Origin: an uncultured Lachnospiraceae bacterium
GTDB lineage: Bacteria > Bacillota > Clostridia > Lachnospirales > Lachnospiraceae
Length of the DNA: 64,000 nucleotides
Direction of reading: 5' to 3'
Assembly: GCA_947625205.1 (NCBI GenBank)
Contig: CANQNN010000003.1
Location: 110,674 to 174,673 of the forward strand
Shown here: one piece after another, positions 21,121 to 64,000 of the stretch
How positions within the stretch are numbered: the stretch's first letter is position 1
Layout of the letters: the number at the start of each line of letters is the position of its first letter
The notes under the pieces: model-generated
What the model saw: the letters and a program-made list of their open reading frames with translations, nothing else
What the model was told of the DNA's origin: nothing
Databases searched by the model: none
Made by a program: the position numbers and the translations under genes

Positions 21121-21552
21121 ATGATCAAATGGATACGAAAATTGCTGGATAACGAGGTCATACGGTACGCTATCACGGGGGGACTCGTTACTCTGACCAA
21201 TGCCGCAGGATATTTTCTGCTGCGCGAACTGGGGATCATCTATACGGCAGCCAATATTGTGAGCCTTATTCTGTCGAAAGTGGTCGGTTTTTTTCTGAAT
21301 AAATTCTGGGTCTACCGGTCCAAGAATGATACTTTTCTGCAGGCTTTTCTGGAGCTGCTGCGTTTTATTCTTGCAAGGGGATTTACGGGGCTGGTGGATT
21401 TCTTCGGTCTGATCTTGATGGTGGAGCTGCTCGGCTGGAATGACCGTATTTCCAAAATCGCCGTTATGCTGGCGGTGATCGTTCTGAACTATGTGCTCGG
21501 CAAAAAGGCGGTTTTTGTAAACAGAAAAAAAGCAAATCAGGAGTCTGACTGA
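21121..21552 (+). CDS. GtrA family membrane protein (putative Und-P-sugar flippase component)
   Basis: 143 aa with four TM segments. VIRYAITGGLVTLTNAAGYFLL and KVVGFFLNKFWVYRS are typical GtrA family blocks. Directly follows the GtrB-like gene. Confidence 0.75.
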   Translation: MIKWIRKLLDNEVIRYAITGGLVTLTNAAGYFLLRELGIIYTAANIVSLILSKVVGFFLNKFWVYRSKNDTFLQAFLELLRFILARGFTGLVDFFGLILMVELLGWNDRISKIAVMLAVIVLNYVLGKKAVFVNRKKANQESD

Positions 21553-21566
21553 GGGAGCAGAATAAA

Positions 21567-38956: not shown

Positions 38957-39026
38957 ATACAATTCCACCCATTACCATCTGTCATCCGATGCGCGATGAT
39001 CCACAAACTGCATGAACCATATACAT

Positions 39027-45909: not shown

Positions 45910-45940
45910 TGTTTCTGTCTCCTTTTGTTCGATAGTCTGA

Positions 45941-48435: not shown

Positions 48436-49419
48436 TCAGGGAACGATCTGTCTGCCGTTCATATCCTGTATTCCAATCTCATTATACTTCATCATACAGA
48501 TGTTTTCCATATAGCTGCCGATATTTACGGGATTCTCTCTCCCCTCCAGATTGACGATCACCTGCCCCGGCATGTTCACGCCGCACGCATATGCGTGCGG
48601 ATAACCGCCGCCGAAACGCGGGTTGACCTCCGAGATATAATATACCCCGTCGTTCAGAAAAATATCAACATCTATCATACCGGCAAATCCGCAGGTTTCC
48701 ACAAAATCCCGCAGCAAGTCAAACAGCCGGGGATCCCTGACCGATACCGACTTATCCGTTTCCCCGGCCCGCATCTTGATCTTCTTCTTCACAAAGATGG
48801 ATGTGCATTTTCCCGACTTCATATCCACATACACGTCCGCGCCGTATTCCTGTCCGTGCATATACTCCTGGATCATCAGATCGTCGTACAGCCTAAACAG
48901 CAGCTCGATCTCCTCGTCGCTGTTCGCCTGGTTGATATTGATGCTGGCGCTTCCTTTTACCGGTTTGACAAACACGGGATAAGATATGTCTCCCCTCTCC
49001 AGGGCTTCATAAAATTTCCTCTTGTCCACATAGCACTTTCCGGTCGGGATACCCATTTTCTCCAGCAGACAGAACATGCGATATTTATCGAAGCAGGTCT
49101 CTACCAGATCGTATGGAGAAATAACAGGCGTTGTGCCGATTTCCAGAAAGCGTTCCCGCTCTCTCGCCAGAAGACTCAGCTCCGGATCGATCAGTGAAAA
49201 CACTCCGTCTATATGCTCTTTCCTGCAGATATCCAGTATACAGTCCAGATAACCGGGCTCCGTGATCCTCGGCACGAGATAAAAACGATCCGCCTCATAG
49301 ACGGCAGGCGCCAGATTGGAACAGTCCGTAGCAACGACTCTGCCGTTATCTCCGATCTCTTTTTTAAAATACTGCACTATCTTATTGCGCGTTCCCGCGC
49401 TGAGTATCAAAATATTCAT
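48436..49419 (-). CDS. ATP-grasp domain ligase
   Basis: Start at ATG 49419 (MNILILSAGTRNKIVQYFK). FVKPVKGSASI, MIQEYMHGQEYGADVY and YISEVNPRFGGGYP are typical ATP-grasp (carbamoyl-phosphate-synthase-like) blocks. Confidence 0.7.
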   Translation of the reverse strand: MNILILSAGTRNKIVQYFKKEIGDNGRVVATDCSNLAPAVYEADRFYLVPRITEPGYLDCILDICRKEHIDGVFSLIDPELSLLARERERFLEIGTTPVISPYDLVETCFDKYRMFCLLEKMGIPTGKCYVDKRKFYEALERGDISYPVFVKPVKGSASININQANSDEEIELLFRLYDDLMIQEYMHGQEYGADVYVDMKSGKCTSIFVKKKIKMRAGETDKSVSVRDPRLFDLLRDFVETCGFAGMIDVDIFLNDGVYYISEVNPRFGGGYPHAYACGVNMPGQVIVNLEGRENPVNIGSYMENICMMKYNEIGIQDMNGRQIVP

Positions 49420-49467
49420 CGCAATATTACCTTTCTTCCGGCAGACGCGCATATGACAAAACAGCCG

Positions 49468-50421
49468 TTACCGCCCGGTCAGCCTGTCAAAGTAGAGCGG
49501 CGCGCCGCCCGTGTGGATGAAAAGAACGTCTTTGTCCGCGATCTCATGGCTCCGCAGGTACTCCGTCATCCCGTAAAAGGCTTTGCCAACATAAGTAGTA
49601 TCCATAGGAATACCCTCCAGCGCCATCACCCGGTCGATAAGCCGCTCTACTTCTTCCGTATAGCTGCCGTACCCTTCCAGACGGTATCCGTCCTCAAAGA
49701 TCAGCCTGTCATCCGTATATAGTTTGTCAAAGTCATCCGCCAGATATTCCCGTATACTGTCCTTTACCACATTTCTGCCCCGAGCGGCATCCCTGGCAAT
49801 GCTGATCCCGACGATCTTTCTCTTTCCATCTCCCGAAAGAAGCTGTCCGCAGACAAGACCGGCCTGCGTCGCTCCTGTGCCGGAGGCGTGAAAAATATAA
49901 TCAAAATGCAGACCGGCGCGTTTCTCCTGGCACTCGATCTCACGATAGGCCTTCACATAACTGTCCGTCCCGTGATAACCGTGACCGCCCCCGGCAATAA
50001 AATAGGGGACCTTTCCTTCGGTGCGGTAAGCAGCTTCTCTGCGCCTGATCGTCTCCGCCACCTCCGTGACGGGGCACGTCTCTATGACTGCGCCGAAGCT
50101 TTCTACCAGTCTGGTATTATACAGTCTCTCCCTGTGCTCCGCAGGTGAGATCACATGGCATGCCAGCCCCATAGCCGCCGCCATGTTTGCGATAATGCGG
50201 CAATGGTTGGAGCTGTTGCTCCCATAAGTCATGATGACGTCCGTATCCGTTTTCCGTATATCCCTGTAAAACTCTGCGGCTTTTCTAACCTTATTTCCGC
50301 CAAAGCAAAAGGGGATACAGTCGTCTCTTTTCACAAAAAACCTATTGTGCCCGTACTCGCCCGACAACATCTGGATCGGCGTCTCGTCCAGTTCTCTCTC
50401 AAAGAGTTCTATCTTTCTCAC
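49468..50421 (-). CDS. PLP-dependent enzyme, ACC deaminase/D-cysteine desulfhydrase family (Trp-synthase beta fold)
   Basis: TPIQML...FFVKRDDCIPFCFGGNKVRKAAEF parallels TPIQ...[21 protein letters not shown], which holds the PLP lysine in ACC deaminase. GGGHGYHG and HASGTGATQAGL glycine-rich loops. Apparent GTG start. Confidence 0.65.
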   Translation of the reverse strand: MRKIELFERELDETPIQMLSGEYGHNRFFVKRDDCIPFCFGGNKVRKAAEFYRDIRKTDTDVIMTYGSNSSNHCRIIANMAAAMGLACHVISPAEHRERLYNTRLVESFGAVIETCPVTEVAETIRRREAAYRTEGKVPYFIAGGGHGYHGTDSYVKAYREIECQEKRAGLHFDYIFHASGTGATQAGLVCGQLLSGDGKRKIVGISIARDAARGRNVVKDSIREYLADDFDKLYTDDRLIFEDGYRLEGYGSYTEEVERLIDRVMALEGIPMDTTYVGKAFYGMTEYLRSHEIADKDVLFIHTGGAPLYFDRLTGR

Positions 50422-50423
50422 AC

Positions 50424-51041
50424 TCAGTGTGCCCCCTTGCGATATTTATCAAAATCCTCCACGACCTGATCCGCCCCCGACAGGGTGCCGGAATGCCGCA
50501 ATACTCTGCCAACCGTCATGCCGATTATCTTCAGATCCATGCCAAAAGACAGGCGGTTCACATACTCTAAATCATAGGCAAACCGCTCCTCCCAGCCAAG
50601 CGCATTGCGCCCGTTCACCTGCGCAAGTCCCGTGAGTCCCGGCCGCACATCATGCCTGTGTCTTTCCTCCTCAGTATACCACGGAAGGTATCTGACCAAA
50701 AGCGGACGCGGACCGATCAGGCTCATATCGCCTCTCAGTATATTGACCAGCTCCGGCAGCTCGTCCAAACTGGTGCTTCTCAGCTTCTTCCCGAACGGGG
50801 TAAGCCTCACTTCGTCGGGAAGCAGTTCTCCCTTTTCATTACGGGCGTCATTCATGGAGCGGAATTTGTACAAATGAAAGATCTTTTCATCTTTTCCGGG
50901 CCTTTCCTGCTTAAAAATAACAGGTGATCCCAATTTGATCCTTACCAGAACAGCCAGGATCAAATACACGGGAGAAAGCACGATGATGCCGCACAAAGAT
51001 ATAACGATATCCAGTATCCTCTTGACATACTTCCGATACAT
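50424..51041 (-). CDS. Small monotopic phosphoglycosyl transferase (PglC/WcfS-like initiating enzyme)
   Basis: Start at ATG 51041 (MYRKYVKRILDIVISLCGIIVLSP), preceded by AAGGAG. SPVIFKQERPGKDEKIFHLYKFRSM, DELPELVNILRGDMSLIGPRP, PGLTGLAQVNGRN. About 205 aa with a single N-terminal helix, the PglC architecture. Confidence 0.85.
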   Translation of the reverse strand: MYRKYVKRILDIVISLCGIIVLSPVYLILAVLVRIKLGSPVIFKQERPGKDEKIFHLYKFRSMNDARNEKGELLPDEVRLTPFGKKLRSTSLDELPELVNILRGDMSLIGPRPLLVRYLPWYTEEERHRHDVRPGLTGLAQVNGRNALGWEERFAYDLEYVNRLSFGMDLKIIGMTVGRVLRHSGTLSGADQVVEDFDKYRKGAH

Positions 51042-51104
51042 TTCTTTCTCCTTACCGCGGATTCTCCATCCGCTGTTACCGATCACGCTATGCCGCGCCG
51101 CAGA

Positions 51105-52238
51105 CTACCTTCCGAAACACTTCCGTACCATACCGATGATCAGTTCCATATCTTCCGGCGTGTTCTTGATATCGCTCGGCAGGCACAATCCCCTGTCAAA
51201 AATGTCTGCGCCCACGCTGCTGCCGTCATCATTGTGCGGAATAAAATCATAAGGTTCAAAAACCGGCTGTAAGTGCATCGGCTTCCAAATCGGTCTGGTT
51301 TCAATATTTTCCTGTGCCAAGGCATCCATGACCTGATCCGGCGTCACATCGCTATCTCCGTCGATCGTCATGCAGGACAGCCAGCAGTTGGCGTCCCCAT
51401 CCGGATTGAGAGGATTCATTGTGATCTCCTCTATATCCGCAAACGCGTTGCTGTACTGCGCATAGATCGCTTTCTTTAGCATTTTATGCTCTTCCAGATG
51501 CATAAGCTGGCCCCGTCCGATGCCCGCCGTAACATTGCTCATACGGTAATTATATCCGATCTGTGAGTGCTGGTAATGTCTTGCCGGATCGCGTGCCTGC
51601 GTCGCCAGAAAAGTAGCCTTTTTTACTGCCTCCTCGTCTTTCGACACAAGCATGCCGCCGCCGGAAGTGGTGATGATCTTGTTGCCGTTAAAAGAATATA
51701 TGCCGTATATGCCGTAAGTACCGGTATATTTTCCTCTGTAGGTGCTCCCCAGAGACTCTGCGGCATCCTCTATGAGCGGCACGTTATGCTGTGCGCAGAT
51801 CTCCATGATCTCATCCAGCTTCGCCGGCGTTCCATATAAATGCACACAGATCACCGCTTTGGGATGAGGATATTTTTCAAATGCCTTCCTGAGTGCCGCA
51901 GGGGACATATTCCACGTGTCAGGCTCCGCATCGATAAACACCGGCACAGCGTTTTCGTATACAATAGGATTACAAGACGCTGAAAATGTCAGATCCGATA
52001 CAAATACAACGTCTCCGTGACCGATACCCAACAGTTTGAGCGACAGATGAATGGCCGCAGTACCCGAATCAAGAGCCGCCGCATGACCGCAATCCGTATA
52101 TGCCTCCATCTCTCTCTCAAAAGCATTGACATTGGGACCCAGGGGGGCTATCCAGTTTGTGTCAAAGGCCTCCTGCACATATTTCTGTTCATCGCCGTGC
52201 ATGGTGGGACTCGACAGATATATTCTCTTCCGTTCCAT
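51105..52238 (-). CDS. DegT/DnrJ/EryC1/StrS family aminotransferase (PglE-like)
   Basis: IYLSSPTMHGDEQKYVQEAFDTNWIAPLGPNVNAFE and YSFNGNKIITTSGGGMLV (PLP lysine block). AAGGAGG SD. Sits between the PglF-like and PglC-like genes. Confidence 0.85.
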   Translation of the reverse strand: MERKRIYLSSPTMHGDEQKYVQEAFDTNWIAPLGPNVNAFEREMEAYTDCGHAAALDSGTAAIHLSLKLLGIGHGDVVFVSDLTFSASCNPIVYENAVPVFIDAEPDTWNMSPAALRKAFEKYPHPKAVICVHLYGTPAKLDEIMEICAQHNVPLIEDAAESLGSTYRGKYTGTYGIYGIYSFNGNKIITTSGGGMLVSKDEEAVKKATFLATQARDPARHYQHSQIGYNYRMSNVTAGIGRGQLMHLEEHKMLKKAIYAQYSNAFADIEEITMNPLNPDGDANCWLSCMTIDGDSDVTPDQVMDALAQENIETRPIWKPMHLQPVFEPYDFIPHNDDGSSVGADIFDRGLCLPSDIKNTPEDMELIIGMVRKCFGR

Positions 52239-52291: not shown

Positions 52292-54172
52292 TCATTCATC
52301 CGCCGGACTGTGATAGGTCGGAACGATCTCTTTGATGAGGGGTCTGATATCGGAATTCTCGATCTGGCACTCATCCTTTAATTTTTTCAGCTGGGCGAAA
52401 AATTTCTGTTCATCGATCTCGATCGGTCTGCCGATATAGATCATCTTATTAGCCGTTTCTTTCATGCCCTCTTCGTCCAGCAGCAATTCTTCAAACAGCT
52501 TCTCCCCCGGCCGCAGACCCGTAAATTCGATCTGTATATCTTCCCCCACGCGGTAGCCCGACAGCTTGATCAGATTTTCGGCCAGATCCAATATTCTGAC
52601 CGGTTCCCCCATATCCAGCACAAATATCTCGCCGCCCTTCGCATAGGCGCCCGCCTGCAGCACAAGAGATACCGCCTCCGGTATCGTCATAAAATAACGA
52701 ATAATATCGGGGTGCGTCACTGTCACAGGGCCGCCCGCCTCGATCTGCTTACGAAACAGCGGAATAACGCTGCCGTTGCTGCCAAGCACATTGCCGAACC
52801 GAACCGCCACAAATTCCGTATCGTAATGTTTGTCAAACGTCTGAATAATCATCTCACAGATACGTTTGCTGGCGCCCATAATATTGGTAGGGTTCACTGC
52901 CTTGTCCGTAGAGATCATCACAAAGCGCTGCACGCCGCTCATCGCCGCTGCCTGCGCGGTCTTAAAGGTGCCGAATACATTATTCTTAATCGCCTCCGTG
53001 GGGCTGTCTTCCATAAGGGGAACATGCTTATGCGCCGCCGCGTGATACACGATATCCGGTTTGTATTTTGAAAAAATATAATTCATGCGGTTGGTGTTGC
53101 GCACAGAAGCGATCAATACGACCAGATCAAGATCCGGAAAATGTGCCTTCAACTCCTGCTGCACATCGTACACCGCATTCTCGTAAATATCCACTATGAC
53201 AAGCCGTTTAGGCTTATGAGACGCTATCTGTCTGCACAATTCGCTGCCGATGGACCCGCCGCCACCCGTGACCAGTATCACCTTGCCCTGTACGTAGCCC
53301 AGAATGGAATCCATATCAACGCTGACAGGGTCCCTTCCCAGCAGATCCTCCACTTCCACATCCCGCAGTTTACTGATATTAACTTCCCCGTTTACGAGCT
53401 GATACATACCAGGAAGAGAGCGCAGTTTGCAGTTTGTGTCCTTACAGATCTCAAGTATCTTCCTGATCTCCGCTCTGCTTGCGGAGGGCATGGCGACAAT
53501 GATCTCATCTACGCCATAGACATCGGCGCACTCCACGATCTTCTCCCTTCCGCCTACGACCTTGATCCCCTGAATATATCTGCCCCATTTTCCCTTATCA
53601 TCATCAATGATACATTTGATGACCATTGTGGAGAAGTTACTGTTGACGATCTCTTTAATGATCACATTCGCCGCTTCACCCGCGCCGATCACCATAACTG
53701 AGATCAGGTTTTTCTTATTCTGCTGCTTATGCTTAAGACTTCTGAAAAACCGGTAAGAAAAACGGCTGGCAAAAATGCAGGTGATCAGAAGGAACATATA
53801 CAGGAAGTAATAACTCTTCGGCACCGGCTGTGAGGCCACCTTGACAAACTGAAGCGCAATACTGTGGACTGCTGTAGACAGCACACAGGATATGACAATG
53901 TTCTGCAGCTCCGTCTCGCCGGCAAACGCCCACAAGCTGCTGTACAGGTGAAAGACGTAAAATATCAGAAGCGTTATGACGACATTGATCGGCATGACGC
54001 GCTCGATCGGCTGCATAAAGTGTGAAGGTATCAGATGGATCGCAAATTCGTAACGCATCAGAATAGCAAGATAACTTGCCAGAATAATGCTGATGATATC
54101 ATAAACGATCAGGCATGTCCTTCTGTAAAATATTTTAACATTAAATGTTTTTCTCTTATTATCCTTATTCAT
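52292..54172 (-). CDS. Membrane-bound UDP-HexNAc 4,6-dehydratase (CapD/PglF/WbpM family)
   Basis: Four N-terminal TM segments. First Rossmann VMVIGAGEAANVI. Second, ILVTGGGGSIGSEL, with HAAAHKHVP and STDKAVNPTNIMGASKR blocks. Start set to ATG 54172 (MNKDNKRK), an 8 nt overlap with the upstream gene. Confidence 0.85.
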   Translation of the reverse strand: MNKDNKRKTFNVKIFYRRTCLIVYDIISIILASYLAILMRYEFAIHLIPSHFMQPIERVMPINVVITLLIFYVFHLYSSLWAFAGETELQNIVISCVLSTAVHSIALQFVKVASQPVPKSYYFLYMFLLITCIFASRFSYRFFRSLKHKQQNKKNLISVMVIGAGEAANVIIKEIVNSNFSTMVIKCIIDDDKGKWGRYIQGIKVVGGREKIVECADVYGVDEIIVAMPSASRAEIRKILEICKDTNCKLRSLPGMYQLVNGEVNISKLRDVEVEDLLGRDPVSVDMDSILGYVQGKVILVTGGGGSIGSELCRQIASHKPKRLVIVDIYENAVYDVQQELKAHFPDLDLVVLIASVRNTNRMNYIFSKYKPDIVYHAAAHKHVPLMEDSPTEAIKNNVFGTFKTAQAAAMSGVQRFVMISTDKAVNPTNIMGASKRICEMIIQTFDKHYDTEFVAVRFGNVLGSNGSVIPLFRKQIEAGGPVTVTHPDIIRYFMTIPEAVSLVLQAGAYAKGGEIFVLDMGEPVRILDLAENLIKLSGYRVGEDIQIEFTGLRPGEKLFEELLLDEEGMKETANKMIYIGRPIEIDEQKFFAQLKKLKDECQIENSDIRPLIKEIVPTYHSPADE

Positions 54173-56714
54173 GATTCTGTGTCGTCCTCTGTCTATCAAA
54201 AAGAAGGGGCGTCATTGCCACCAGAAGGCTGCAAGTCGTCGGATTACAGGGGTGAAAGATCCACTCCGTCAGTCCCGCAACGGCAAACATGACTAGAATG
54301 GCGATCGGCAAAGATGCGCATACCCTGTCTTCTTTATGCTTATGATAATAAACCGCAGACTGTACCAATGTACAGACCCCCAGCAGAATAAACGCAATAC
54401 CTACCGGTATACCGTGGTCATAAGCTACCTGAAGATAAATATTGTGTGCATGAACAGTGTAGGTGCCATCCGGCTCCATAATATCCATATCATCATGACC
54501 GTTCCGGTTTAAACGGCTCAGATACAGCTTAAATATATCCATTCGGCCATTGGCATAAGACCTGACGGCATCGCCTTCCGCCTCCTCGCACTGCGCCGGG
54601 ATCTCCACCGGAACATTTTCTGTGGACGCAAGCAGTATGGGATCCGCGCAGGCAAGCATGCTGTCCGGTGTATTAACATACCCTGCCGATTCATCCAAAA
54701 ATTCTATCTCCTCATTGCCGTTCATATAAAAGGGCGCAACAAGAGATTCTTCCTCCGGTATGCCAAGTATCTTCATCTGAAACACCTGTATAAACCTCAT
54801 CGGCGTCATATAGTAAAAGGAATCCATATCCCGCCCGTGCATGATCTCCGAGGGAAGCTCTTCTATCTCAAACACGACCGGTCTGGCAACAAGCGCCGGG
54901 AGCATTCTCTGCGCTGTAAATGTTATCGGAAAGCACAACACAAAAGCAGCCAGTATCATCCCGACGGCACGTATCATACTGCGCCATCTGTGCGCAAACG
55001 AAAAGCATACGATGGGAATCACGACCGCCGCCACAACAACCGCTGCAATATATCCGGTTCTGGACATTGTAAGCAGCAGATATACTGACGCTACGCCGAG
55101 CAGAAGCAGCTCCTTATATACATATGCCAGACGCCTGTTTCTTCTGTAAGCGTCCAGGAACTTCACAAGCGCCGCACATACCACAAGCGTCAGATACACG
55201 CCCGTTATCGTTACGGTGTGGAAAGTAAAGGGGTATCTGGAATATATAAAAAACATATACGGCCTGTGAAGCAGACAATATATTACCATCGCCCCAAAAT
55301 GGAGCAGGATACCGTTACAGAGATTCCCCAACAGCATGGCTTTGCCGTCCCATGCCGCCATGTTCAGATAAAACAGCGCAAAACAGCATACCAGATAGAC
55401 CGGCCATCCTCTGGTGTTGCGGCGCCATATGATCAGGACAAAGAAAACCGCCACCGGGATCCAGTACCAGACAGATATATCTCTGATCTGGCGGCGCACT
55501 AAAAAGCGGATCGTGCCGATTATGACGACTCCCGCCAGCACCCCGGCCCAAACCGTAAGCTTCAGGGCCAGGATCTCCATATCACCGGGGGCTTCCATGT
55601 CTGCAAGCAAACCATTATAATAGCGCAGGCCCACCGTTGCTGCCGCAACAGCATAGATCAGATTCACCCAGTTAAATATATCCCTGCCTCTGTATGTCAC
55701 GATCACAGCCAACGCCAGAAAGATCAGCTGCTGCCTGTAGGCAATGGTATGATACATCTCATACAGGCCATTCACATAATTGCAGCACGCCCAAATCGCA
55801 CCGGCGAAGAAAAAAGACTGCAGATAATTACGCCAGTTCCCGCATACGGCACCCAGAACAGTTCTGTCCGACATGAAGCCTGTCCTGTCATGATTGACGG
55901 CATAAAACAGGACTGCGGCCGCCAGAACAATGCCTGCGATCAGAAAAACGGCGGTCACCGTATCCTGTCTGGGCGTGAACAGTCCACACGGCCATACGGC
56001 TGTCATCGCCACCGCAGCGCCGATCACAATGAGCGGATTGCAAACCGTTTTTACCGTCTTCTCCACTGTGACAAGATGGTCACGTTCCTGTTTCTTCCCA
56101 TAATAGGTGTACGTGATACGGCTGACAAGGAAGCCCGCCAATATAAGAACGGCGGCGCACAACAGTGTCTTTCCTTTCCGAAGCGGCATACTGTACTCAT
56201 ATTTTGTGATGATGCAGTGTTCCGTATCTTCCACATTACCATAGTAGAGTGTGCCGTTATATATATTGCCCGAATCCTCTGTATTTTCATACGCTACGCG
56301 AAAAGAAGAATCCAGTCCCTGTATCAGATAATAATATTCCCTGCCGACTTCAGCATCGATATTGACCTGCACGGTACAGAATCCCGGAATCGCTTCCATA
56401 CCTTCCGTGTCAATGACCTGCTGCATAATAATATTCATCCGGGCATCATAGAGGACAAAATTAAATTTCTCGCCGACTGTGCCCTGTGTAAAATAAATAT
56501 CGATATTTTTCAGCCGGTCATACTGTGCGATAAACATCTGCTGCACCACATAGTCCGATGTGATCGCCTCAGACTCCATGACCGCCTGCGCGCGGCTGCC
56601 GGATACTACCGTCTCCTGTACGAGTCGCAGCGGCCACAGTGAAAAGACCGCGCACAGGACAAAGACCCACACAGTCGCACGAATTGCCTGACTTTTATTT
56701 ATGATCCTGTTCAT
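54165..56714 (-). CDS. Large Wzy_C-domain membrane protein (O-antigen ligase/polymerase/O-oligosaccharyltransferase family)
   Basis: About 849 aa. One TM, then a ~180 aa extracytoplasmic domain, then more than 12 TM. LLTMSRTGYIAAVVV and VHAHNIYLQVAYDHGIPVGIAFILLG match the SRxG and H-x-H-N-x-x-L...G-x-x-G blocks of the Wzy_C family. ATG 56714 (MNRIINK) has AAGGTG upstream; the track start 56720 is a GTG. Confidence 0.65.
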   Translation of the reverse strand: MNRIINKSQAIRATVWVFVLCAVFSLWPLRLVQETVVSGSRAQAVMESEAITSDYVVQQMFIAQYDRLKNIDIYFTQGTVGEKFNFVLYDARMNIIMQQVIDTEGMEAIPGFCTVQVNIDAEVGREYYYLIQGLDSSFRVAYENTEDSGNIYNGTLYYGNVEDTEHCIITKYEYSMPLRKGKTLLCAAVLILAGFLVSRITYTYYGKKQERDHLVTVEKTVKTVCNPLIVIGAAVAMTAVWPCGLFTPRQDTVTAVFLIAGIVLAAAVLFYAVNHDRTGFMSDRTVLGAVCGNWRNYLQSFFFAGAIWACCNYVNGLYEMYHTIAYRQQLIFLALAVIVTYRGRDIFNWVNLIYAVAAATVGLRYYNGLLADMEAPGDMEILALKLTVWAGVLAGVVIIGTIRFLVRRQIRDISVWYWIPVAVFFVLIIWRRNTRGWPVYLVCCFALFYLNMAAWDGKAMLLGNLCNGILLHFGAMVIYCLLHRPYMFFIYSRYPFTFHTVTITGVYLTLVVCAALVKFLDAYRRNRRLAYVYKELLLLGVASVYLLLTMSRTGYIAAVVVAAVVIPIVCFSFAHRWRSMIRAVGMILAAFVLCFPITFTAQRMLPALVARPVVFEIEELPSEIMHGRDMDSFYYMTPMRFIQVFQMKILGIPEEESLVAPFYMNGNEEIEFLDESAGYVNTPDSMLACADPILLASTENVPVEIPAQCEEAEGDAVRSYANGRMDIFKLYLSRLNRNGHDDMDIMEPDGTYTVHAHNIYLQVAYDHGIPVGIAFILLGVCTLVQSAVYYHKHKEDRVCASLPIAILVMFAVAGLTEWIFHPCNPTTCSLLVAMTPLLFDRQRTTQNHE

Positions 56715-56819: not shown

Positions 56820-58631
56820 TTATATTTCCTCCGCCAGCATAGCGGCAAACAGAGGCATACCGAACCAGAATATCAGTACATAGCGAGGCAGATATGTTGG
56901 ACCTAACAGCACGGTCATCCATACGAGCAGCACCATCAGATACGGGATCACAATATGATATCTTCTGCGATACAGCACATAGGCGAATACAAACGCAATG
57001 CACCAGAAGATCCCTCCCGGAGAATACAGCATGGACCAGATCGGTATTTTTTCCTGCGAGATCTCCAGCGCAAGTTTTCTGTAGGCTTCATCCAGCCACG
57101 GGATCTTGCTGTCACGCTCGCCCGGCAGCTCCACCTCGTAACCGAAATAAGAACTGTCCCCGTATGTAAACGTAAAGACGGAATTCCCCGAATATACATC
57201 GATCACGGTATCAGGATACCAGAAGCCGTAGGAATTTACCAGCCACGCGTTAATGTAAGACAAAGGCTTTTTAAGGCCAATACGCATCCACAGGTTTATA
57301 TATTTGAACCTGTCCGCCGCAAAAGCCTCATTGCGAAACTGTACCTTCACGGGATCGGACAGCTTGGGATTATATAAAACGAGCGCCTCTTCGGGAAGGA
57401 TCTCATGCAGTGTATCTACATCCTCCGCCTCAAAGACCTCCCTGTTGAATTTATAGGTCCTCGCAAGCTGCTGGATCGGCACCGTAAGTATTTCCTGATT
57501 CTCCCCGCTCTCCGCATGCAATATAACCGTAAGTCCGGCGTTTACCAGAACATAAGCCAGCACGGCGGCCACCACAAGGCCCGCCGCCTTCTTACTGTAT
57601 TTTCTGTGGTACAGCAAAAGCACCGGGCTTAAAACAGCAAAAGCATAGACGCCGTTTTTACGAAGCAGCATCATAGCCGCCGCACTCAGAACAAAAAAAG
57701 CCATCTTTTTCCTGGACGCAAAGAAATCTTCCTGAAAGGTGCCCATATCCAGCAGCGCGAGCAAAAGCATCAATAACGCCATCGCAAAGAGCGTGTCTTT
57801 CGCCGAGCAGAGGGTAAACATGACAATAACCGGGAAAAAAGCAAAATAGAAAAGCGACAGAATGCGTATCCCCTTGGAAACGCCTCTCCTTCGCATAAAA
57901 GAGAGCAGATAAGTAAAACCGCCGGATACGATCAGCATCTGCACAACCGTATAACAGGCTATCCCAAGATTATAAGAGCCCGTAAACTTATGCACAGCGC
58001 AGACAATACCGCCCAGAAGGAGCACGTGCACAAGCGGATGATGTGTGTTAAAGACCCTCGATGCCACCTGTACCCATTCGTCCTGTGCATCATATACAAA
58101 GAAGCCCGGATATACGGCAAGAAATACCGGTGTCCAGCACAGAAGCAGGAATACAAACGTAAGCGCGTCCCTGTACCGCGCCGCCCTGGCAGGCGTCCCG
58201 GGAAGTCTGATATTCTCGGCGAGCCTTCTTTTGCGCTCCTCCATGCCGCCAAGAAAATTCCAGCATTTCCGTATCAGGATCGCAAAAAGGCTCGTCAATA
58301 CCGCCAAAGATACCCACAGGCGCCAATCCTTAAAATCCACGTTTCCCACCGCATCCAGGCGGGTCCCGAACAGCATAGCCAGCGTAAAACAGAACGCATA
58401 AATACCCGCAATAAACCAGCCTCTCTTATCATGCAGATCGATCGACCGGAGCGACCATTCAACCGCATACAGGCATAATAGCCAGATAAAAACGGCAAAA
58501 ATACTGTTGGTAAATGCAAGCGTATTCTGCTTAAGATTCAGCACCTGCGGCAGACACAGCGTTCCCGCCGTTGCAATACAAAAAGCTGCTATACTTAATT
58601 TTAATTTATTTCTGTACTCATTCCCACTCAT
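56820..58631 (-). CDS. Polytopic membrane protein with C-terminal extracytoplasmic domain (GT-C-like, family uncertain)
   Basis: 603 aa. About 10 TM, a ~170 aa soluble segment (EILTVPIQQLARTYKFNREVFEAED...WYPDTVIDVYSGNSVF), then 3 more TM. ATGA overlap with the upstream GtrB-like GT2 gene. Confidence 0.4.
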   Translation of the reverse strand: MSGNEYRNKLKLSIAAFCIATAGTLCLPQVLNLKQNTLAFTNSIFAVFIWLLCLYAVEWSLRSIDLHDKRGWFIAGIYAFCFTLAMLFGTRLDAVGNVDFKDWRLWVSLAVLTSLFAILIRKCWNFLGGMEERKRRLAENIRLPGTPARAARYRDALTFVFLLLCWTPVFLAVYPGFFVYDAQDEWVQVASRVFNTHHPLVHVLLLGGIVCAVHKFTGSYNLGIACYTVVQMLIVSGGFTYLLSFMRRRGVSKGIRILSLFYFAFFPVIVMFTLCSAKDTLFAMALLMLLLALLDMGTFQEDFFASRKKMAFFVLSAAAMMLLRKNGVYAFAVLSPVLLLYHRKYSKKAAGLVVAAVLAYVLVNAGLTVILHAESGENQEILTVPIQQLARTYKFNREVFEAEDVDTLHEILPEEALVLYNPKLSDPVKVQFRNEAFAADRFKYINLWMRIGLKKPLSYINAWLVNSYGFWYPDTVIDVYSGNSVFTFTYGDSSYFGYEVELPGERDSKIPWLDEAYRKLALEISQEKIPIWSMLYSPGGIFWCIAFVFAYVLYRRRYHIVIPYLMVLLVWMTVLLGPTYLPRYVLIFWFGMPLFAAMLAEEI

Positions 58632-59602
58632 ATTTCTTTGGTTCTTTCCTCATCTGCAGCCGCCGACCCACCGCCGGCATTGATGCATTCACTGATGACG
58701 TACTGGGGAGAGCTGTTGAGTGATATATAGATCCTCCCGATATATTCTCCGATCATGCCGAGCATGATCATGATCATACCGCCGATAAAAACAAGCATCG
58801 CCATCATTGCGCTGAATCCGACCGGCACATCCGGATTGACAAACTTCTTGATCACCGTATAAACGCCATACAGGAATCCTGCACAGGCAGACATAAAACC
58901 AACGACTGTTGCAATGCGCAAGGGTTTAATACTGAAAGCGGTAAAGCCGTTAAACCATAATCCAAGCAGCTTGCCGACCGTGTAGCCGGAGACCCCGTTT
59001 TCTCTCTCCCGGTGCGTCACATCCACATTGGTAATATTTTTCGTGGTGCGCAGTACCAGTCCGATCACATACGGATAAGGATTCTTATACCGCAGCATCT
59101 CTTCCACCACAAACCTGCGTACCGCAAAATAGCTGGATACATACAATTCTTTAGGCTTTCCGAGCATTACCCGCGTCATCAGTTCATTGATCCTGCTGCC
59201 AAAATTGCGAAACCCCGAATGGCGCTTGTGGGTATACCTTGCATAGACCACATCAAATCCCTCTTCGATCCCGGCAAGCAGTTTGCCCACCTCATCGGCC
59301 GGCGTCTGCCCGTCATCATCAAGACACACTGCCACATCTCCGTGCACATAACCAAAGCCCGCCATAAGCGCCGCATGCTGTCCAAAATTCTTCGCCAGAT
59401 TAACACCGCAAATATCCTTCCGTCCGGCGCAGAGTCCGCGTATCACATCATATGTCGCATCGGGCGAACCGTCATTGACAAGCACGATCTCATAATCATA
59501 TGCGTCCATACCCTTCATCGTTGCATCGATCTCGTCAACCACCTTACCGATCGTCTGTGCCGAACGATAACACGGTATTACAAAACTGACCAGTTTCTTC
59601 AT
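58628..59602 (-). CDS. GT2 polyprenyl-phosphate glycosyltransferase (GtrB/ArnC/CsbB-like)
   Basis: Start at ATG 59602 (MKKLVSFVIPCYRSAQTIGKVV; ATGA overlap). VLVNDGSPDAT, CLDDDGQTP. Two C-terminal TM helices (LRIATVVGFMSACAGFLYGVY, AMMAMLVFIGGMIMIMLGMIGEYIG). Confidence 0.8.
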   Translation of the reverse strand: MKKLVSFVIPCYRSAQTIGKVVDEIDATMKGMDAYDYEIVLVNDGSPDATYDVIRGLCAGRKDICGVNLAKNFGQHAALMAGFGYVHGDVAVCLDDDGQTPADEVGKLLAGIEEGFDVVYARYTHKRHSGFRNFGSRINELMTRVMLGKPKELYVSSYFAVRRFVVEEMLRYKNPYPYVIGLVLRTTKNITNVDVTHRERENGVSGYTVGKLLGLWFNGFTAFSIKPLRIATVVGFMSACAGFLYGVYTVIKKFVNPDVPVGFSAMMAMLVFIGGMIMIMLGMIGEYIGRIYISLNSSPQYVISECINAGGGSAAADEERTKEI

Positions 59603-60153
59603 GATTCCTCCGTTTCTGCGCCGTCTGCCATGCATTTTTCTTCCCAGCTGCCTCTGTCGATCTCCATAAAGAGCACCTTTCGCTCCCCCTGCGGCGTCAT
59701 CGCCGTTTCTTGCCTGTCCGTCATATGAAATCCGGCCCGCTCATAGCTTTTGCGTGCTCCGGTATTATCCGCCAGGAAACGCAAAAATACTCTGTCAAGC
59801 CCCAGTTTGTCAAAGGCATACGCCAGGGCATCTTTGGCCGCCGCAGTTCCATAGCCATGCCCCACGGCATCTTTTTCCCCGATAAATATCCCATACTCGG
59901 CAACGGCCCGCTCTCTGTCGATATCCCGGAAATACACGCTGCCGACAGCCCGTCCGTCCGGCAGACATATGATAAACTGCACCACATGTCCGGGAAGGAC
60001 CTGTGTGCGGACCCATTCCAGATGTCCCTCCTTCGTGAAAGGCTTCTGATATATAAAATTCCGGCGAACCCATTCCTGATTGCGCCACTTCACGATCTGT
60101 TCCGTATCTTCTATCGCCATCGGACGAAGATAGACTGCCTGTACCTGTTTCAA
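59599..60153 (-). CDS. GNAT family N-acetyltransferase (PseH/RimL-like, sugar-amine acetyltransferase candidate)
   Basis: VYLRPMAIEDTEQIVKWRNQEWVRRNF...TKEGHLEW follows the N-terminal pattern I recall for PseH-type enzymes. GHGYGTAAAKDALAYAF is the acetyl-CoA loop region. TTG start with GGAGG five bases upstream. Confidence 0.65.
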   Translation of the reverse strand: MKQVQAVYLRPMAIEDTEQIVKWRNQEWVRRNFIYQKPFTKEGHLEWVRTQVLPGHVVQFIICLPDGRAVGSVYFRDIDRERAVAEYGIFIGEKDAVGHGYGTAAAKDALAYAFDKLGLDRVFLRFLADNTGARKSYERAGFHMTDRQETAMTPQGERKVLFMEIDRGSWEEKCMADGAETEES

Positions 60154-60155
60154 TA

Positions 60156-61919
60156 TTACCTCCGCACCTGGTAAACCCCGCAGGTCCCATTTATCCTGTC
60201 GATCTGCCGGATCTTAACCGATATGCTCCGTTCATGATAGTAAGCCGTAAGCCACCTGGTGTCGCTCCCCGGCGAATCATCCGCTATGATAATATACACG
60301 TTCTTATCCTTTAATAAGCCTTCCGCCGCGGAAGCAATATCATAATGTGCAAGCTTCTGTCCACAGAGCGGGCTCTTACACATCCAGCCGCCCATAATAT
60401 CCCGGTTGGCAACGGAATTATCCACATCGCAGAACATCTTTTCGGAAAAAGATACCGTAGAATATACATCTTCGAAATAAAAGCTGTCCGGATCCTCTCT
60501 GCAGTATGCAGCGATCGCCTGCTCCGTCTTATTGGCCTGCCGCCGCAGCTGCATGTCCTGCTGTACGTTCTGCACGCTGCCCGGTATCATACAGGCAAGC
60601 GCAAGCGCCCAGACCGCCGCGGGCAGATACGCCCTGCGCATTTCCGGCATTTGATGAAGCCACAGACACACCGTCCCCATCAGGACAGCAAACTCCGCCA
60701 GATAAAGGGGATGTATGATGCGCGCCGGCTCCCTTCCTTTCAGTAGAATATACATCCAGGGTACGGTCCGCACAAGCATGAGAAGCAGTCCCTGCGCCAA
60801 AAGAAGAAATCTGTCCCGGCCTCGGCGGATAACCGCCGTATACACTCCCGCGCCGAGCGCCGTAATATAACCGAGCAGCACCAGCACGCTATAGGAGCCG
60901 TCCTGCAGATGTATGATCCGATATCTGTACCGCCCCGCTGTCTGCGCCAAATGCGCCTTTACGTCCGTATTCTGTGCGGCATAACCGTCAGCATAATCCG
61001 CAAGCGCCGCCATCATCTGTTCATCGATCGATTCATCCAGGCCGAAATTATAATTGGCAAGCAGCATCTGCTGTGCCTCCGATACTCCCAGTCCGGCCAA
61101 CTCCCCGGCATGCGTGCCGTCCGTCACCACATCCATACGAAAATCATACAGTCTTGTGCGGTCATCGAAAAAGCGGCTAAAATCCCGCCATTCCGGACTG
61201 CTGTATGCCGCCCGGTCGACCAGCAGACCAAATCCCATACCGAGAAGAATTGTTCCCATCACCAGACCGTATTTCAGAAAATTTACTTTCCGCAGGGGCC
61301 GCTCCTCCATCAAAAACCGGAACGATCCGGCGGCCGCTATAAACGGGAACAGCAAAAGCGCCATTTCCGTCCGAAGCCAGAAAGCGACTATCACAAGCAT
61401 AACGGCAGCGCGGTTGTATCCCAGAAACGACCGAACCGAAAGTCCGCCGGGCGCCGTCATAAACAGGAACACGGCAGCGCAGACCATAACGCCGCAGACT
61501 ATCGTATACTGAACCGCTACCATATGCAGAAGCGGCACACTCCATATAAAAAGTGTCAGCATGACAAGCCAGACACACTTCCAAACGCGACTCCTGCATA
61601 GATTTAAGAGCCTGACCCCAACCAGATATATACTGATAAACTGGCACAGACACAGAAACAGTCCATACCACGGGACATTGCGGAACACTCTGTAAAAAAA
61701 GCTGATAACGACACCCAGAATATACAGCGTCTGCATATTATGTCCGTCAGGCGTCCCCGTATATACCCCCGCCAGAACGTCTTTTATCATGACATCGTCA
61801 TTCAGATCATAATAAAAATCATATAGAAGGCTCATCAGGACAACATTGCACAGGACAGTCAGCAGAACCGCAATATGATCTTTATATTTTTCCCACAATC
61901 TGCGCAGCAGCATGAACAT
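60156..61919 (-). CDS. Uncharacterised polytopic membrane protein with C-terminal soluble domain (paralogue-like to 12058-14130)
   Basis: 587 aa. YDFYYDLNDDVMIKDVLAG after TM1. About 6 TM, a soluble loop (EWRDFSRFFDDRTRLYDF...ANYNFGLDESID), about 4 TM, then a ~140 aa C-terminal domain (SFYFEDVYSTVSF...). Confidence 0.45.
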   Translation of the reverse strand: MFMLLRRLWEKYKDHIAVLLTVLCNVVLMSLLYDFYYDLNDDVMIKDVLAGVYTGTPDGHNMQTLYILGVVISFFYRVFRNVPWYGLFLCLCQFISIYLVGVRLLNLCRSRVWKCVWLVMLTLFIWSVPLLHMVAVQYTIVCGVMVCAAVFLFMTAPGGLSVRSFLGYNRAAVMLVIVAFWLRTEMALLLFPFIAAAGSFRFLMEERPLRKVNFLKYGLVMGTILLGMGFGLLVDRAAYSSPEWRDFSRFFDDRTRLYDFRMDVVTDGTHAGELAGLGVSEAQQMLLANYNFGLDESIDEQMMAALADYADGYAAQNTDVKAHLAQTAGRYRYRIIHLQDGSYSVLVLLGYITALGAGVYTAVIRRGRDRFLLLAQGLLLMLVRTVPWMYILLKGREPARIIHPLYLAEFAVLMGTVCLWLHQMPEMRRAYLPAAVWALALACMIPGSVQNVQQDMQLRRQANKTEQAIAAYCREDPDSFYFEDVYSTVSFSEKMFCDVDNSVANRDIMGGWMCKSPLCGQKLAHYDIASAAEGLLKDKNVYIIIADDSPGSDTRWLTAYYHERSISVKIRQIDRINGTCGVYQVRR

Positions 61920-61928
61920 GAAACCTTT

Positions 61929-63056
61929 CTATCGATAGAACGCCTTCACCTGATCGGTGATATAGGTCACTTCGTCCTCCGTCAGCGTATAGAACATCGG
62001 CAATCTGAAAAGTCTTTCACTCTCTCTGGTCGTATATCTGTCCTCACCGTGGAATCTGCCGTATTTGCGGCCCGCCGGTGCAGAGTGCAGCGGTATATAA
62101 TGAAAGACCGCATGCACGCCTCTCTCTTTCAGAAAAGCATCCAGCCGGGTGCGCTCCTCCATATCCTTTGTCTTGATATAAAACATATGTGCATTATGCT
62201 TGCAGTGAGGCGGTATATAAGGCAGCTCGATCCTGCCTTCATCAGCCAAAGGCGTAAGTAGTTCTCTGTACTGGTTCCATCTGTTCATCCTCGCCTGTGT
62301 GATCTCGTCCGCAAGCTCTAACTGCGCATACAGATATGCGGCGTTCATATCACTCGGCAAATAGGAGGAGCCGTAATCCTGCCACCTGTATTTATCCACT
62401 TCTCCTCTGAAATATTTGCTCCTGTCCGTTCCCTTCTCACGAAAGATCTCCGCTTTCTCTACATACCGTTTATCCCGTATGAGAAGAGCGCCGCCCTCTC
62501 CCATGCTGAAATTCTTCGTCTCATGAAAACTGAAACACCCAAAATCACCGAATGTTCCCAGAGCCTTGCCCTTATAGGACGCCATGATGGCCTGTGCGGC
62601 ATCCTCCACCACCATCAGGTGATGTCTGTCAGCAATATCCATGATGACATCCATCTCACACCCCACACCGGCATAGTGCACAGGCGCGATCACACGGGTC
62701 TTATCTGTGACCGCATCCTCGATCAGCGTCTCGTCTATATTCATCGTATCCGGTCTGATATCCACAAATACCGCCTTTGCCCCGCGCAGCACAAACGCGT
62801 CCGCCGTGGACACAAAGGTATAGGACGGCAGGATCACCTCATCGCCCTCCTTAATATCTGCAAGCAGCGCAGCCAGCTCCGTTGCATGCGTACAGGATGT
62901 GGTAAGCAGACATTTAGCCGTGCCCGTCTTAGCCTCGATCCACTCGCTGCATTTCTTTGTAAACGGTCCGTCCCCGCATATCTTCTGATTCTGAACGGCC
63001 TCTTTCATATATTCGATCTCTTTGCCCGTATAAGGCGGCACATTAAAATTAATCAT
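61929..63056 (-). CDS. wecE: dTDP-4-amino-4,6-dideoxygalactose transaminase (WecE-like, DegT family)
   Basis: From MINFNVPPYTGKEIEYM onward the protein tracks E. coli WecE as I remember it, block for block: CGDGPFTKKC, PSYTFVSTADAFVLRGAKAVFVDIRPDTMNIDETLIEDAVTDKTRVIAPVHYAGVGCEMD, VVEDAAQ, FSFHETKN, REKGTDRS, VDKYRWQDYGSSYL. An alternative ATG at 63074 adds six residues. Confidence 0.85.
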   Translation of the reverse strand: MINFNVPPYTGKEIEYMKEAVQNQKICGDGPFTKKCSEWIEAKTGTAKCLLTTSCTHATELAALLADIKEGDEVILPSYTFVSTADAFVLRGAKAVFVDIRPDTMNIDETLIEDAVTDKTRVIAPVHYAGVGCEMDVIMDIADRHHLMVVEDAAQAIMASYKGKALGTFGDFGCFSFHETKNFSMGEGGALLIRDKRYVEKAEIFREKGTDRSKYFRGEVDKYRWQDYGSSYLPSDMNAAYLYAQLELADEITQARMNRWNQYRELLTPLADEGRIELPYIPPHCKHNAHMFYIKTKDMEERTRLDAFLKERGVHAVFHYIPLHSAPAGRKYGRFHGEDRYTTRESERLFRLPMFYTLTEDEVTYITDQVKAFYR

Positions 63057-63141
63057 GTTGGATTTCCGTCCCATTACCGTATTATATCCTCTTCCCTGAT
63101 GCCAACTGCCTGATCTGCAACTATTGTAGCATAGTAATGCT

Positions 63142-64000
63142 TTAATTGGCAATTCCCCGCCGTTTTCGCACCGCATATCCTGCCGCCAGTCCCACCGTTA
63201 CAAGGATACCCGCAACTGTACAGACAGTTCCGGCGTTCCTGTATGGAGTGGTATAAACAAATCTGACATCATGACTTCCCTTGCTTATGGAAACACCCAT
63301 ATATACCGTATTCACGCGTTCAACCGGCACTTTTGTTCCATCGACGCAGGCGCTCCAGCCTTCCGAAAACGGAACCGCCACACAAAGAATACTGTCTTTT
63401 TCACAAGTAACGCTGCCTTCCATGACATTGACAGAAAAACTCCAGTCTTTCACGCCGGAAGACTGCCGGGCGGACAGATATGCTTCGATCGGTTTCCTCG
63501 GCTGTGCAACGACTCTGATCCTGTCAAACGTATAGACACCGCTCTTTCCGGGGCGCAGCGTGATTTCGCTGTCTCCCCTGCCTACATAGCCTAAGTTACA
63601 TAAAAAATTATGTCTTCCGCAGTACATTCTGTTCCAGGGCGTAAAATAGGTCACGCCGCCTTCATGACCGGAATAATCAATACTGATCGCCACATTATCA
63701 TCCGCCGTGTACATGCGCTGGCTTTCCCGTATGACCTGTCTGGAATCCCAGTCCAGATTATTAATATCTCCTCCAGCCCATTGTGTAACCGGGTCCATAT
63801 CCTTCCACTGCATTCCCTCCATAATCACATACACCTCGGCATCCTCGGGAATCCGTTCCAGCTCCATGACGATCTCCCCGTCCCCGCTGTCGGCGATAAA
63901 CCCGTTTTCCGTTATACTCACATTGTCAGAGCGCATCTCATAACCAATATCATAATTGGAAAATGTAAGCCCGGTTTCCGGCAGCGTACTGCTCTCCACC
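63142..64000 (-). CDS. YfhO family membrane protein, C-terminal part only (5' end beyond window)
   Basis: The reading frame is open to the window edge. The C-terminal block VAVPFSEGWSACVDGTKVPVERVNTVYMGVSISKGSHDVRFVYTTPYRNAG, followed by a final TM (TVCTVAGILVTVGLAAGY), matches the characteristic YfhO C-terminus (GW.A.VDGK.V....VN..F.GV....G.H.V.F.Y.P). Confidence 0.6.
   Translation of the reverse strand, partial: VESSTLPETGLTFSNYDIGYEMRSDNVSITENGFIADSGDGEIVMELERIPEDAEVYVIMEGMQWKDMDPVTQWAGGDINNLDWDSRQVIRESQRMYTADDNVAISIDYSGHEGGVTYFTPWNRMYCGRHNFLCNLGYVGRGDSEITLRPGKSGVYTFDRIRVVAQPRKPIEAYLSARQSSGVKDWSFSVNVMEGSVTCEKDSILCVAVPFSEGWSACVDGTKVPVERVNTVYMGVSISKGSHDVRFVYTTPYRNAGTVCTVAGILVTVGLAAGYAVRKRRGIAN

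Follow-up and report, generated by a model that had tools for sequence, protein, structure and literature searches.

The 64,000-nucleotide stretch of Lachnospiraceae DNA analysed here (hereafter the window) is almost entirely taken up by one surface-glycan locus on the minus strand. Its last part, positions 56820-64000, carries six genes that we studied as a possible module for glycosylation outside the membrane. In the direction of transcription these are the 3' end of a yfhO gene, wecE, a gene for a 585-aa polytopic membrane protein, and genes for a GCN5-related N-acetyltransferase (GNAT), a family 2 glycosyltransferase (GT2) and a polytopic protein of the DUF6020 family. A check of the open reading frames (ORFs) placed all six on the minus strand, in the order and at the coordinates proposed in an initial annotation that had been made from the sequence alone (Table 1). 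The gap between wecE and the 585-aa gene is about 15 nt, and that between the 585-aa gene and the GNAT gene is 2 nt. The last three genes are chained by ATGA overlaps, as first described; both were read directly in the sequence, at 59602-59599 for GNAT/GT2 and at 58631-58628 for GT2/DUF6020. A promoter-like site (63152-63123, minus strand; TTGCCA, an 18-nt spacer and TG-TACAAT) lies within the 67-nt gap between yfhO and wecE. It has 10 of 12 consensus matches and an extended -10, as given by a consensus scan that is not evidence of function, and could be the start of a five-gene sub-operon.

Table 1. Features of the module and its surroundings. Positions are those of the window, except for the fused ORFs, which are numbered within the related locus named.
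Feature	Position	Strand	Assignment and basis
YfhO C-terminus	63142..64000	-	285 aa of a 924-aa YfhO-family GT-C protein; PF09586
wecE	61929..63074	-	Predicted pyridoxal phosphate-dependent dTDP-4-keto-6-deoxy-D-glucose 4-aminotransferase; NF008687, TIGR02379
585-aa polytopic protein	60156..61913	-	Predicted GT-C; AlphaFold2 model and Foldseek
GNAT N-acetyltransferase (Acetyltransf_3)	59599..60153	-	PF13302; nearest named family PseH
GT2, ArnC/GtrB/DPMS type	58628..59602	-	Full-length alignment to ArnC and GtrB
DUF6020 polytopic protein, 603 aa	56820..58631	-	PF19484; ATGA overlap with GT2
849-aa polytopic protein, weak Wzy_C	54165..56714	-	PF04932 below cutoff
PglF/CapD-like UDP-GlcNAc 4,6-dehydratase	52292-54172	-	PF02719, E 4e-123
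PglE/LegC-like aminotransferase	51105-52238	-	PF01041, E 1e-94
Small PglC-like phosphoglycosyl transferase	50424-51041	-	PF02397, E 2.5e-62
GNAT::GT2 fusion ORF, L017	9452-10933
GNAT::GT2 fusion ORF, L018	9452-10933
GNAT::GT2 fusion ORF, L047	9449-10963
GNAT::GT2 fusion ORF, L063	2952-4436
GNAT::GT2 fusion, protein P0113

The module proteins were compared by blastp with every ORF of 80 related Lachnospiraceae loci, taken from one genome per species and carrying a GT2 67-83% identical to the one studied here; more than 500 further relatives exist. The locus on the source contig (ENA ERZ27248994 NODE_8, 221,892 bp) is referred to as L001, and cultured carriers of the module include Butyrivibrio sp. 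AE2015 and Su6 (L081 and L083).

The wecE product passed both curated cutoffs of its family (631 bits for NF008687, cutoff 375; 618 bits for TIGR02379, cutoff 434.85) and is 66% identical over 361 columns to Escherichia coli WecE (PDB 4piw/4zah), in full agreement with its first description as WecE-like. The catalytic lysine that binds pyridoxal phosphate (PLP) is retained in SFHETK. The enzyme is predicted to form dTDP-4-amino-4,6-dideoxygalactose (dTDP-Fuc4N) from dTDP-4-keto-6-deoxy-D-glucose. A search for rmlA and rmlB was negative for the window, as already reported, for the flanking 10 kb on either side (about 84 kb of contig altogether) and for all 80 related loci. An RmlB-like match in locus L066 was rejected, being a GDP-mannose 4,6-dehydratase with genes for ManC and phosphomannose isomerase adjoining. 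These three genes (L066 9833-13304), which may supply only fucose, are located 3.5 kb downstream from contiguous WecE, GNAT and GT2 genes; the dehydratase is the only 4,6-dehydratase observed close to a module of WecE type.

The GNAT matched PF13302 over model positions 2-138 of 138 (E 1.6e-23, 84 bits, gathering 25.4). Its best NCBIfam match was PseH (TIGR03585), with 72 bits, below the cutoff of 93.1, and the PseH-like label of the initial annotation holds to that extent only. No WecD family occurred among its NCBIfam matches (E<=1e-3) and no WecD chain among its PDB matches. By these matches, the enzyme is an unassigned relative of PseH by best match only and is not a WecD homologue. We predict that it acetylates the 4-amino group of a nucleotide diphosphate (NDP)-sugar.

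The GT2 aligned over its full length with ArnC (9bhc; 158 bits, 32% identity, ArnC residues 8-314) and with GtrB sll0501 (5ekp; 119 bits). It comprises a GT-A domain, juxtamembrane helices and the two C-terminal transmembrane (TM) helices noticed initially, which is the architecture of glycosyltransferases acting on prenyl phosphate (Pren-P). Residues D95, D97, Q99, R132, S136 and R200 correspond to ArnC D100, D102, Q104, R137, S141 and R205, and the catalytic set of ArnC, GtrB and DPMS is intact. The motif (L/M)DDDGQTP, which is specific to this clade and replaces the canonical DADLQ, is invariant in 81 of 81 GT2 orthologues. Scores were below the cutoffs of the ArnC equivalog (NF007986, 188 bits, cutoff 529) and of PgfS (NF047588, 158 bits, cutoff 500). 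The enzyme is predicted to load an acetamido sugar on undecaprenyl phosphate (Und-P). ArnC accepts only the N-formylated form of UDP-4-amino-4-deoxyarabinose (UDP-Ara4N) as donor (10.1101/2025.01.29.634835); thus, acylation ahead of Und-P loading has a precedent.

Gene linkage across the family ties these enzymes together. The GNAT gene lies directly upstream of GT2 in 72 of the 78 loci in which its position could be evaluated. Moreover, the two are fused in frame into a single ORF of 494-505 aa in four loci (L017, L018, L047 and L063) and in protein P0113, and the junction contains no internal methionine in L047 and P0113. An aminotransferase of the DegT family was found within 10 kb in 66 of 68 evaluable loci, and a WecE orthologue (at least 60% identity) within the same distance in 50 of the 68. 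WecE, GNAT and GT2 form contiguous triads in L043, L050 and L066, and WecE stays with GNAT-GT2 in the rearranged blocks of L061 and L078. In most loci, the gene after GT2 encodes a polytopic protein of about 400-880 aa, which is of DUF6020 type in 33 loci and Wzy_C-like in 8; most of the remainder are of further, unassigned types. The conserved core as a whole consists, in this order, of genes for a GtrA-family protein, an Acyl_transf_3 protein, a 590-aa membrane protein, WecE, the 585-aa protein, GNAT, GT2, DUF6020, an 849-aa protein and the PglF-, PglE- and PglC-like enzymes. This block is kept at 67-90% protein identity in at least 80 species-level Lachnospiraceae genomes, and the content of Leloir glycosyltransferases further out differs from locus to locus.

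In the trees of GT2 and of GNAT alike, the loci that lack WecE group as one subclade. There, the slot upstream of GNAT is occupied by PseC (467-491 bits, cutoff 423.5) or by a third, unassigned type of DegT enzyme, and PseB is found near PseC (542-546 bits, cutoff 408). Because the aminotransferase slot is kept when the type of enzyme changes, the invariant seen in these comparisons is the pairing of an aminotransferase with GNAT-GT2, and not any particular neighbouring gene. This pattern is expected of a GNAT that acetylates what the aminotransferase makes and a GT2 that uses the acetylated sugar. Altogether, comparative genomics indicates strong coupling between the aminotransferase, the GNAT, the GT2 and a polytopic membrane protein.

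Such coupling has to be set against a simpler account, in which the GT2 would be an ordinary enzyme of GtrB/CsbB type loading glucose (Glc), N-acetylglucosamine (GlcNAc) or galactose (Gal), WecE and the GNAT would feed a cytoplasmic Leloir transferase, and adjacency would reflect co-expression only. The characterised Gram-positive systems of GtrB type all use common UDP-sugars (PMC8035078, PMC11127046), and the window encodes more than 15 Leloir enzymes of families GT2, GT4 and GT11. Against ArnC, another GtrB-like gene of the window scores 192 bits and the module GT2 188, so the closeness to ArnC is generic. However, GNAT::GT2 fusions recur, the two genes adjoin in nearly all loci despite the varying Leloir content, the aminotransferase slot outlasts changes of enzyme type, and the GT2 clade carries its own invariant DDDGQTP instead of DADLQ. 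We therefore consider an ordinary GT2 unlikely.

A different question is which aminosugar is loaded, since the block also contains the PglF-, PglE- and PglC-like genes, kept at 59-91% identity in related loci. These are likely to form an initiation arm, for a bacillosamine-type first sugar linked to undecaprenyl diphosphate (Und-PP). The PglC-like gene is followed (48436-51086, minus strand) by genes for a PLP-dependent enzyme of the D-cysteine-desulfhydrase/ACC-deaminase family and for an ATP-grasp enzyme (NF009406, 499 bits). We take the latter to resemble the ATP-grasp domain of Neisseria PglB2; on this analogy, the bacillosamine-type sugar that comes first may bear an unusual N-acyl group.

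One locus, L067, shows WecE in other company. Here, a WecE orthologue (73%) is encoded at 16113-19819 together with a GtrII-type GT-C and a second GtrB-like GT2 (29% identical), and a PseC-GNAT-GT2 set is found 7 kb away on that contig, indicating that WecE can pair with another Und-P synthase too. A cytidylyltransferase gene lies nearby, as do GT52 sialyltransferase-like genes in sister loci.

These neighbours raise the possibility that the donor is a UDP-2,4-diacetamido-2,4,6-trideoxyhexose and not dTDP-4-acetamido-4,6-dideoxygalactose (dTDP-Fuc4NAc), with the PglF- and PglE-like enzymes (PseB and PseC in the sister clade) feeding the GNAT and then the GT2, and WecE serving elsewhere. PseH, the best named match of the GNAT, has a UDP-2-acetamido sugar as its substrate. 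The conserved PglF- and PglE-like genes start from UDP-GlcNAc, so that no supply genes would be missing. Furthermore, PseB (546 bits, cutoff 408) and PseC (491 bits, cutoff 423.5) adjoin GNAT-GT2 in the sister clade, the GNATs of the WecE and PseC classes are 55-62% identical, and WecE stands apart from GNAT-GT2 in L067. On the other hand, it is WecE and not the PglE-like gene that shares the tight sub-operon with GNAT-GT2, the three adjoin one another in L043, L050 and L066, and WecE still accompanies GNAT-GT2 in the rearranged L061 and L078. The ATP-grasp enzyme after the PglC-like gene could acylate the 4-amine of that arm's own sugar, and the loci without WecE are a single derived subclade. 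A diacetamido donor thus appears improbable.

Three membrane proteins are candidates for the final transfer. The 585-aa protein matched no Pfam and no NCBIfam family, and was modelled with AlphaFold2 from a 62-sequence alignment (predicted local distance difference test score, pLDDT, 89; predicted TM-score, pTM, 0.91). Searched against the PDB with Foldseek, the model had ArnT as its top match (5f15; E 5e-4, probability 1.0, TM-score 0.37-0.40), followed by PglB, ALG12, STT3, EmbB, AftA and ALG3. All high-probability matches were GT-C enzymes; the remaining matches listed were transporters of low probability. In GT-C enzymes, the catalytic acidic residues sit in the loop after TM1. The 585-aa family has invariant Y35, N38, D39 and D40 in YYDLNDD (YYDxNDD), just past TM1 in the first outer loop; the N-terminus ahead of TM1 is positively charged and the C-terminal domain is beta-rich. 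The 585-aa protein is thus modelled confidently as a GT-C enzyme.

The DUF6020 protein (PF19484, E 2.5e-41), whose gene is translationally coupled to that of the GT2, belongs to a family of 7,502 representatives at E<=1e-3 in a whole-library search (about 7,500 clusters at 50% identity). It has four extra N-terminal TM helices, and a PG..YDxxDE motif follows TM5; P175, G176 and D181 of this motif are among the invariant residues in a diverse 83-member alignment. Some members cross-match GT-C families, namely PMT_2 (5 of 83, best E 2e-5), DUF2142 (3 of 83, 3e-8) and also Glyco_transf_22. Comparison with the 585-aa family by hhalign gave a probability of 86% (E 5e-6) with the option -M first, as against 1.6% (A2) and 23% (A3) with default settings, and laid VYDAQDE on YYDLNDD together with the helices that follow. 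DUF6020 profiles searched against the PDB returned nothing real, only potassium-channel noise. The AlphaFold2 model, built from a shallow alignment (75-89% identity), had a pLDDT of 47, and its Foldseek matches are meaningless. Profile relationships thus indicate that DUF6020 is probably GT-C. The proposal that the flanking membrane proteins are GT-C enzymes is upheld by Foldseek for the 585-aa protein; for DUF6020 it draws on profiles. The 590-aa protein is a weaker DUF6020 relative (63% probability by profile comparison).

YfhO, by contrast with the initial annotation, cannot be counted in the module. The C-terminal fragment in the window matches PF09586 (E 2.6e-21, 76 bits, gathering 28.5), and the complete gene (L001 3687-6461) encodes 924 aa and carries the same domain. 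It lies between the conserved 590-aa gene and wecE, and blastp found no YfhO homologue in the 80 related loci. It was therefore rejected as the dedicated transferase: judging from this absence, YfhO is a local, genome-specific insertion outside the conserved block, and the promoter-like site falls in the gap that this insertion creates.

The same protein bears on whether the module might glycosylate proteins (Ser/Thr-rich surface proteins, S-layer or flagellin), in the manner of streptococcal Pgf and of GtrB/PMT-type systems. In NCBIfam, YfhO matches only PgfM1 and PgfM2, weakly, and the GT2 matches PgfS; a PMT_2 protein is encoded upstream of the module, and GtrB-dependent O-glycosylation of proteins is documented in streptococci (PMC12041528). 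But YfhO is not conserved, the PgfS and PgfM scores are far under their cutoffs, and the neighbours are of a polymer type, including a PglK-like ABC exporter, a Wzy_C-like protein, a PglC-like initiator and many glycosyltransferases. Protein targets are for these reasons very improbable.

The genes around the module fit such a polymer. The 849-aa protein, which is kept downstream of DUF6020 in most related loci, matches Wzy_C (PF04932) below the cutoff (E 4e-4, 20.5 bits), which makes it a candidate for ligating or polymerising the acceptor. Upstream, outside the window, are genes for the 590-aa membrane protein, the Acyl_transf_3 protein, a GtrA-family protein, an ABC exporter and the PMT_2 protein. 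The GtrA gene (PF04138, 143 aa, L001 355-786), about 6.5 kb upstream and conserved in the block, provides the flippase candidate of a three-component system of GtrB, GtrA and GT-C. A second, canonical GtrB-GtrA-polytopic set is present at 20086-23156 on the plus strand, divergent from the rest of the locus. Its GT2 has the classic DADLQD motif and is 24% identical to the module GT2, its GtrA gene is at 21121-21552, and its 529-aa polytopic protein has no Pfam match. GC skew across the window (1-64000) is negative throughout, from -0.12 to -0.22, save at 20-24 kb; this fits near-total coding on the minus strand, with a few plus-strand genes at 20-24 kb.

Other parts of the locus appear to serve different sugars. 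At 43251-47257 (minus strand), genes for a TviB-like dehydrogenase, a TviC-like 4-epimerase, a DUF2334 (polysaccharide-deacetylase-like) protein and an ArnA-N-like formyltransferase stand in a row. By their families, they look like a route from UDP-GlcNAc to N-formyl-galactosaminuronic acid that is unrelated to the Und-P module. A full Arn pathway through these genes was rejected, the dehydrogenase and epimerase being TviB/TviC-like (UDP-GalNAcA route). Two asparagine-synthase-like glutamine amidotransferases, encoded among glycosyltransferases at 32600-34483 and 37061-38968 (minus strand), may amidate uronic acids. The glycosyltransferase cluster also includes a radical SAM/SPASM enzyme (3788-4834, minus strand) and a polysaccharide pyruvyl transferase (14148-15404, minus strand), and the window holds three GT11 (fucosyltransferase-like) genes, one GT17-like gene and two ABC exporters.

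On balance, we lean towards viewing wecE, the 585-aa GT-C, GNAT, GT2 and DUF6020 as an Arn-like module for extracytoplasmic glycosylation that extends the GtrB/GtrA/GT-C type. What is observed is that WecE and the GT2 belong to their families, that the genes are linked and in some loci fused, and that the 585-aa model has a GT-C fold; the substrates, the role of the flippase and the acceptor are all inferred from family assignment and linkage. In this scheme, WecE would aminate an NDP-4-keto-6-deoxyhexose, most likely dTDP-4-keto-6-deoxy-D-glucose, giving dTDP-Fuc4N. The PseH-like GNAT would then N-acetylate the 4-amino group, and the ArnC/GtrB-type GT2 would move the acetamido sugar onto Und-P at the cytoplasmic face. 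The GtrA-family protein would flip the lipid-linked sugar, and one or more GT-C enzymes, with the 585-aa, DUF6020 and 590-aa proteins as candidates, would transfer it outside the membrane. As acceptor we propose a conserved glycopolymer, which the PglF/PglE/PglC-like enzymes would start on Und-PP, the PglK-like ABC protein would export and the Wzy_C-like protein would ligate or polymerise. That the GT2 loads some N-acetylated 4-amino-4,6-dideoxyhexose is, in our opinion, the more probable part of this scheme; that the sugar is specifically Fuc4NAc derived from dTDP is put forward tentatively. Equally tentative is the wider proposal of a Lachnospiraceae route in which a GNAT and a Pren-P glycosyltransferase, fused in some species, make Und-P-4-acetamido-4,6-dideoxyhexose (here Fuc4NAc, through WecE) from an NDP-4-amino-4,6-dideoxyhexose. 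Three unstudied GT-C families (DUF6020 and those of the 585-aa and 590-aa proteins) would draw on it extracytoplasmically, building or decorating a conserved, bacillosamine-started wall glycopolymer or lipoteichoic acid-like polymer.

Several points weigh against this scheme. Its support is computational throughout. The donor specificity of the GT2 is not readable from its sequence, and no rmlA or rmlB that would supply the dTDP-sugar was detected within about 84 kb or in related loci. A complete UDP-GlcNAc route, PglF-like plus PglE-like, lies in the same block, and the sister clade uses PseB and PseC with the same GNAT-GT2. PseH, as the nearest named GNAT family, acts on a UDP-2-acetamido sugar, and the donor could be a 2,4-diacetamido-trideoxyhexose. 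In L067, WecE is beside a different GtrB-like GT2 and a GtrII GT-C, apart from GNAT-GT2. Finally, the fold of DUF6020 is supported by profile evidence only. The identity of the sugar is thus ambiguous between Fuc4NAc and a diacetamido-trideoxyhexose.

The Arn pathway (ArnB, ArnA, ArnC, ArnD, ArnE/F and ArnT), to which the initial annotation likened the module, follows the same logic of a DegT 4-aminotransferase, N-acylation, loading by a Pren-P GT2, a small flippase and a GT-C. ArnC is also the best solved relative of the GT2, and ArnT the best structural match of the 585-aa protein. However, the sugar of the module is a predicted 6-deoxyhexose, probably carried by dTDP, whereas that of Arn is a pentose carried by UDP. 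Acylation would be performed by a GNAT acetyltransferase instead of a formyltransferase, and the module has no ArnD-like deacylase; the formyltransferase and DUF2334 genes found 13 kb away, among the TviB/TviC-like genes, are probably for another sugar. The flippase candidate is GtrA in place of ArnE/F, there are three GT-C candidates against one GT-C in Arn, and lipid A is excluded as acceptor because the host is Gram-positive. The two systems have no orthologues in common beyond family-level membership in DegT and Pren-P GT2.

Three-component systems (Shigella Gtr, Bacillus subtilis/Listeria CsbB-GtcA-YfhO, Streptococcus pyogenes GacI-L and lactococcal Csd) likewise have a GtrB-type synthase, GtrA and a GT-C in one surface-polymer locus. 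They draw Glc, Gal or GlcNAc directly from the UDP-sugar pool (PMC8035078, PMC11127046), whereas the module synthase is tied, and sometimes fused, to a tailoring arm of aminotransferase and GNAT. Its GT-C partners also come from unstudied families (DUF6020, and one without a Pfam model).

The Fuc4NAc branch of enterobacterial common antigen (ECA; RffG/RffH, WecE, WecD and WecF) shares with the module an orthologous WecE (66%) followed by an acetyltransferase. In contrast to ECA, there is no nearby rffG/rffH, no WecD and no WecF-type Leloir Fuc4NAc transferase, and the product is predicted to go onto Und-P, not onto an Und-PP-linked disaccharide. The likeness to the pseudaminic acid steps (PseB, PseC and PseH) lies in a GNAT nearest to PseH and in the PseB/PseC genes beside GNAT-GT2 in the sister clade. 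Against this, PseB and PseC are missing from the window, and neither PseG nor PseI nor PseF was observed next to the module, whose GNAT is under the PseH cutoff and coupled to a membrane GT2 that the pseudaminic acid pathway lacks. By its predicted enzymes, the module works like Arn and the three-component systems and is a strict member of neither, since the ArnC and PgfS cutoffs are widely missed, there is no formyltransferase/deformylase, and the acetyltransferase is neither WecD nor a PseH that passes its cutoff.

Full-text searches of the available library returned no paper on DUF6020 or on Lachnospiraceae GT-C systems, and none that ties a 4-amino-6-deoxyhexose pathway, WecE included, to an enzyme of GtrB/ArnC type. 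They also found no description of such a donor, in accordance with what had been supposed at first for Gram-positive systems of the CsbB/YfhO type. To our knowledge, only a handful of Und-P-linked donors have been recognised (Glc, Gal, GlcNAc, GalNAc/GalN, GalA, Man, Ara4N and pentofuranoses). If the proposed scheme is true, the module would provide the first amino-6-deoxyhexose donor linked to a lipid monophosphate and the first function for DUF6020. A tailoring arm hard-wired to lipid loading would represent a new donor class, bringing the "acylate, then load" logic of Arn to Gram-positive bacteria. The analysis also proposes testable functions for DUF6020 and for the 585-aa family that has no Pfam model. 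Lachnospiraceae are dominant gut commensals, and with the block conserved in 80 or more of their species-level genomes, its product probably represents a core surface antigen that matters for host recognition and phage adsorption.

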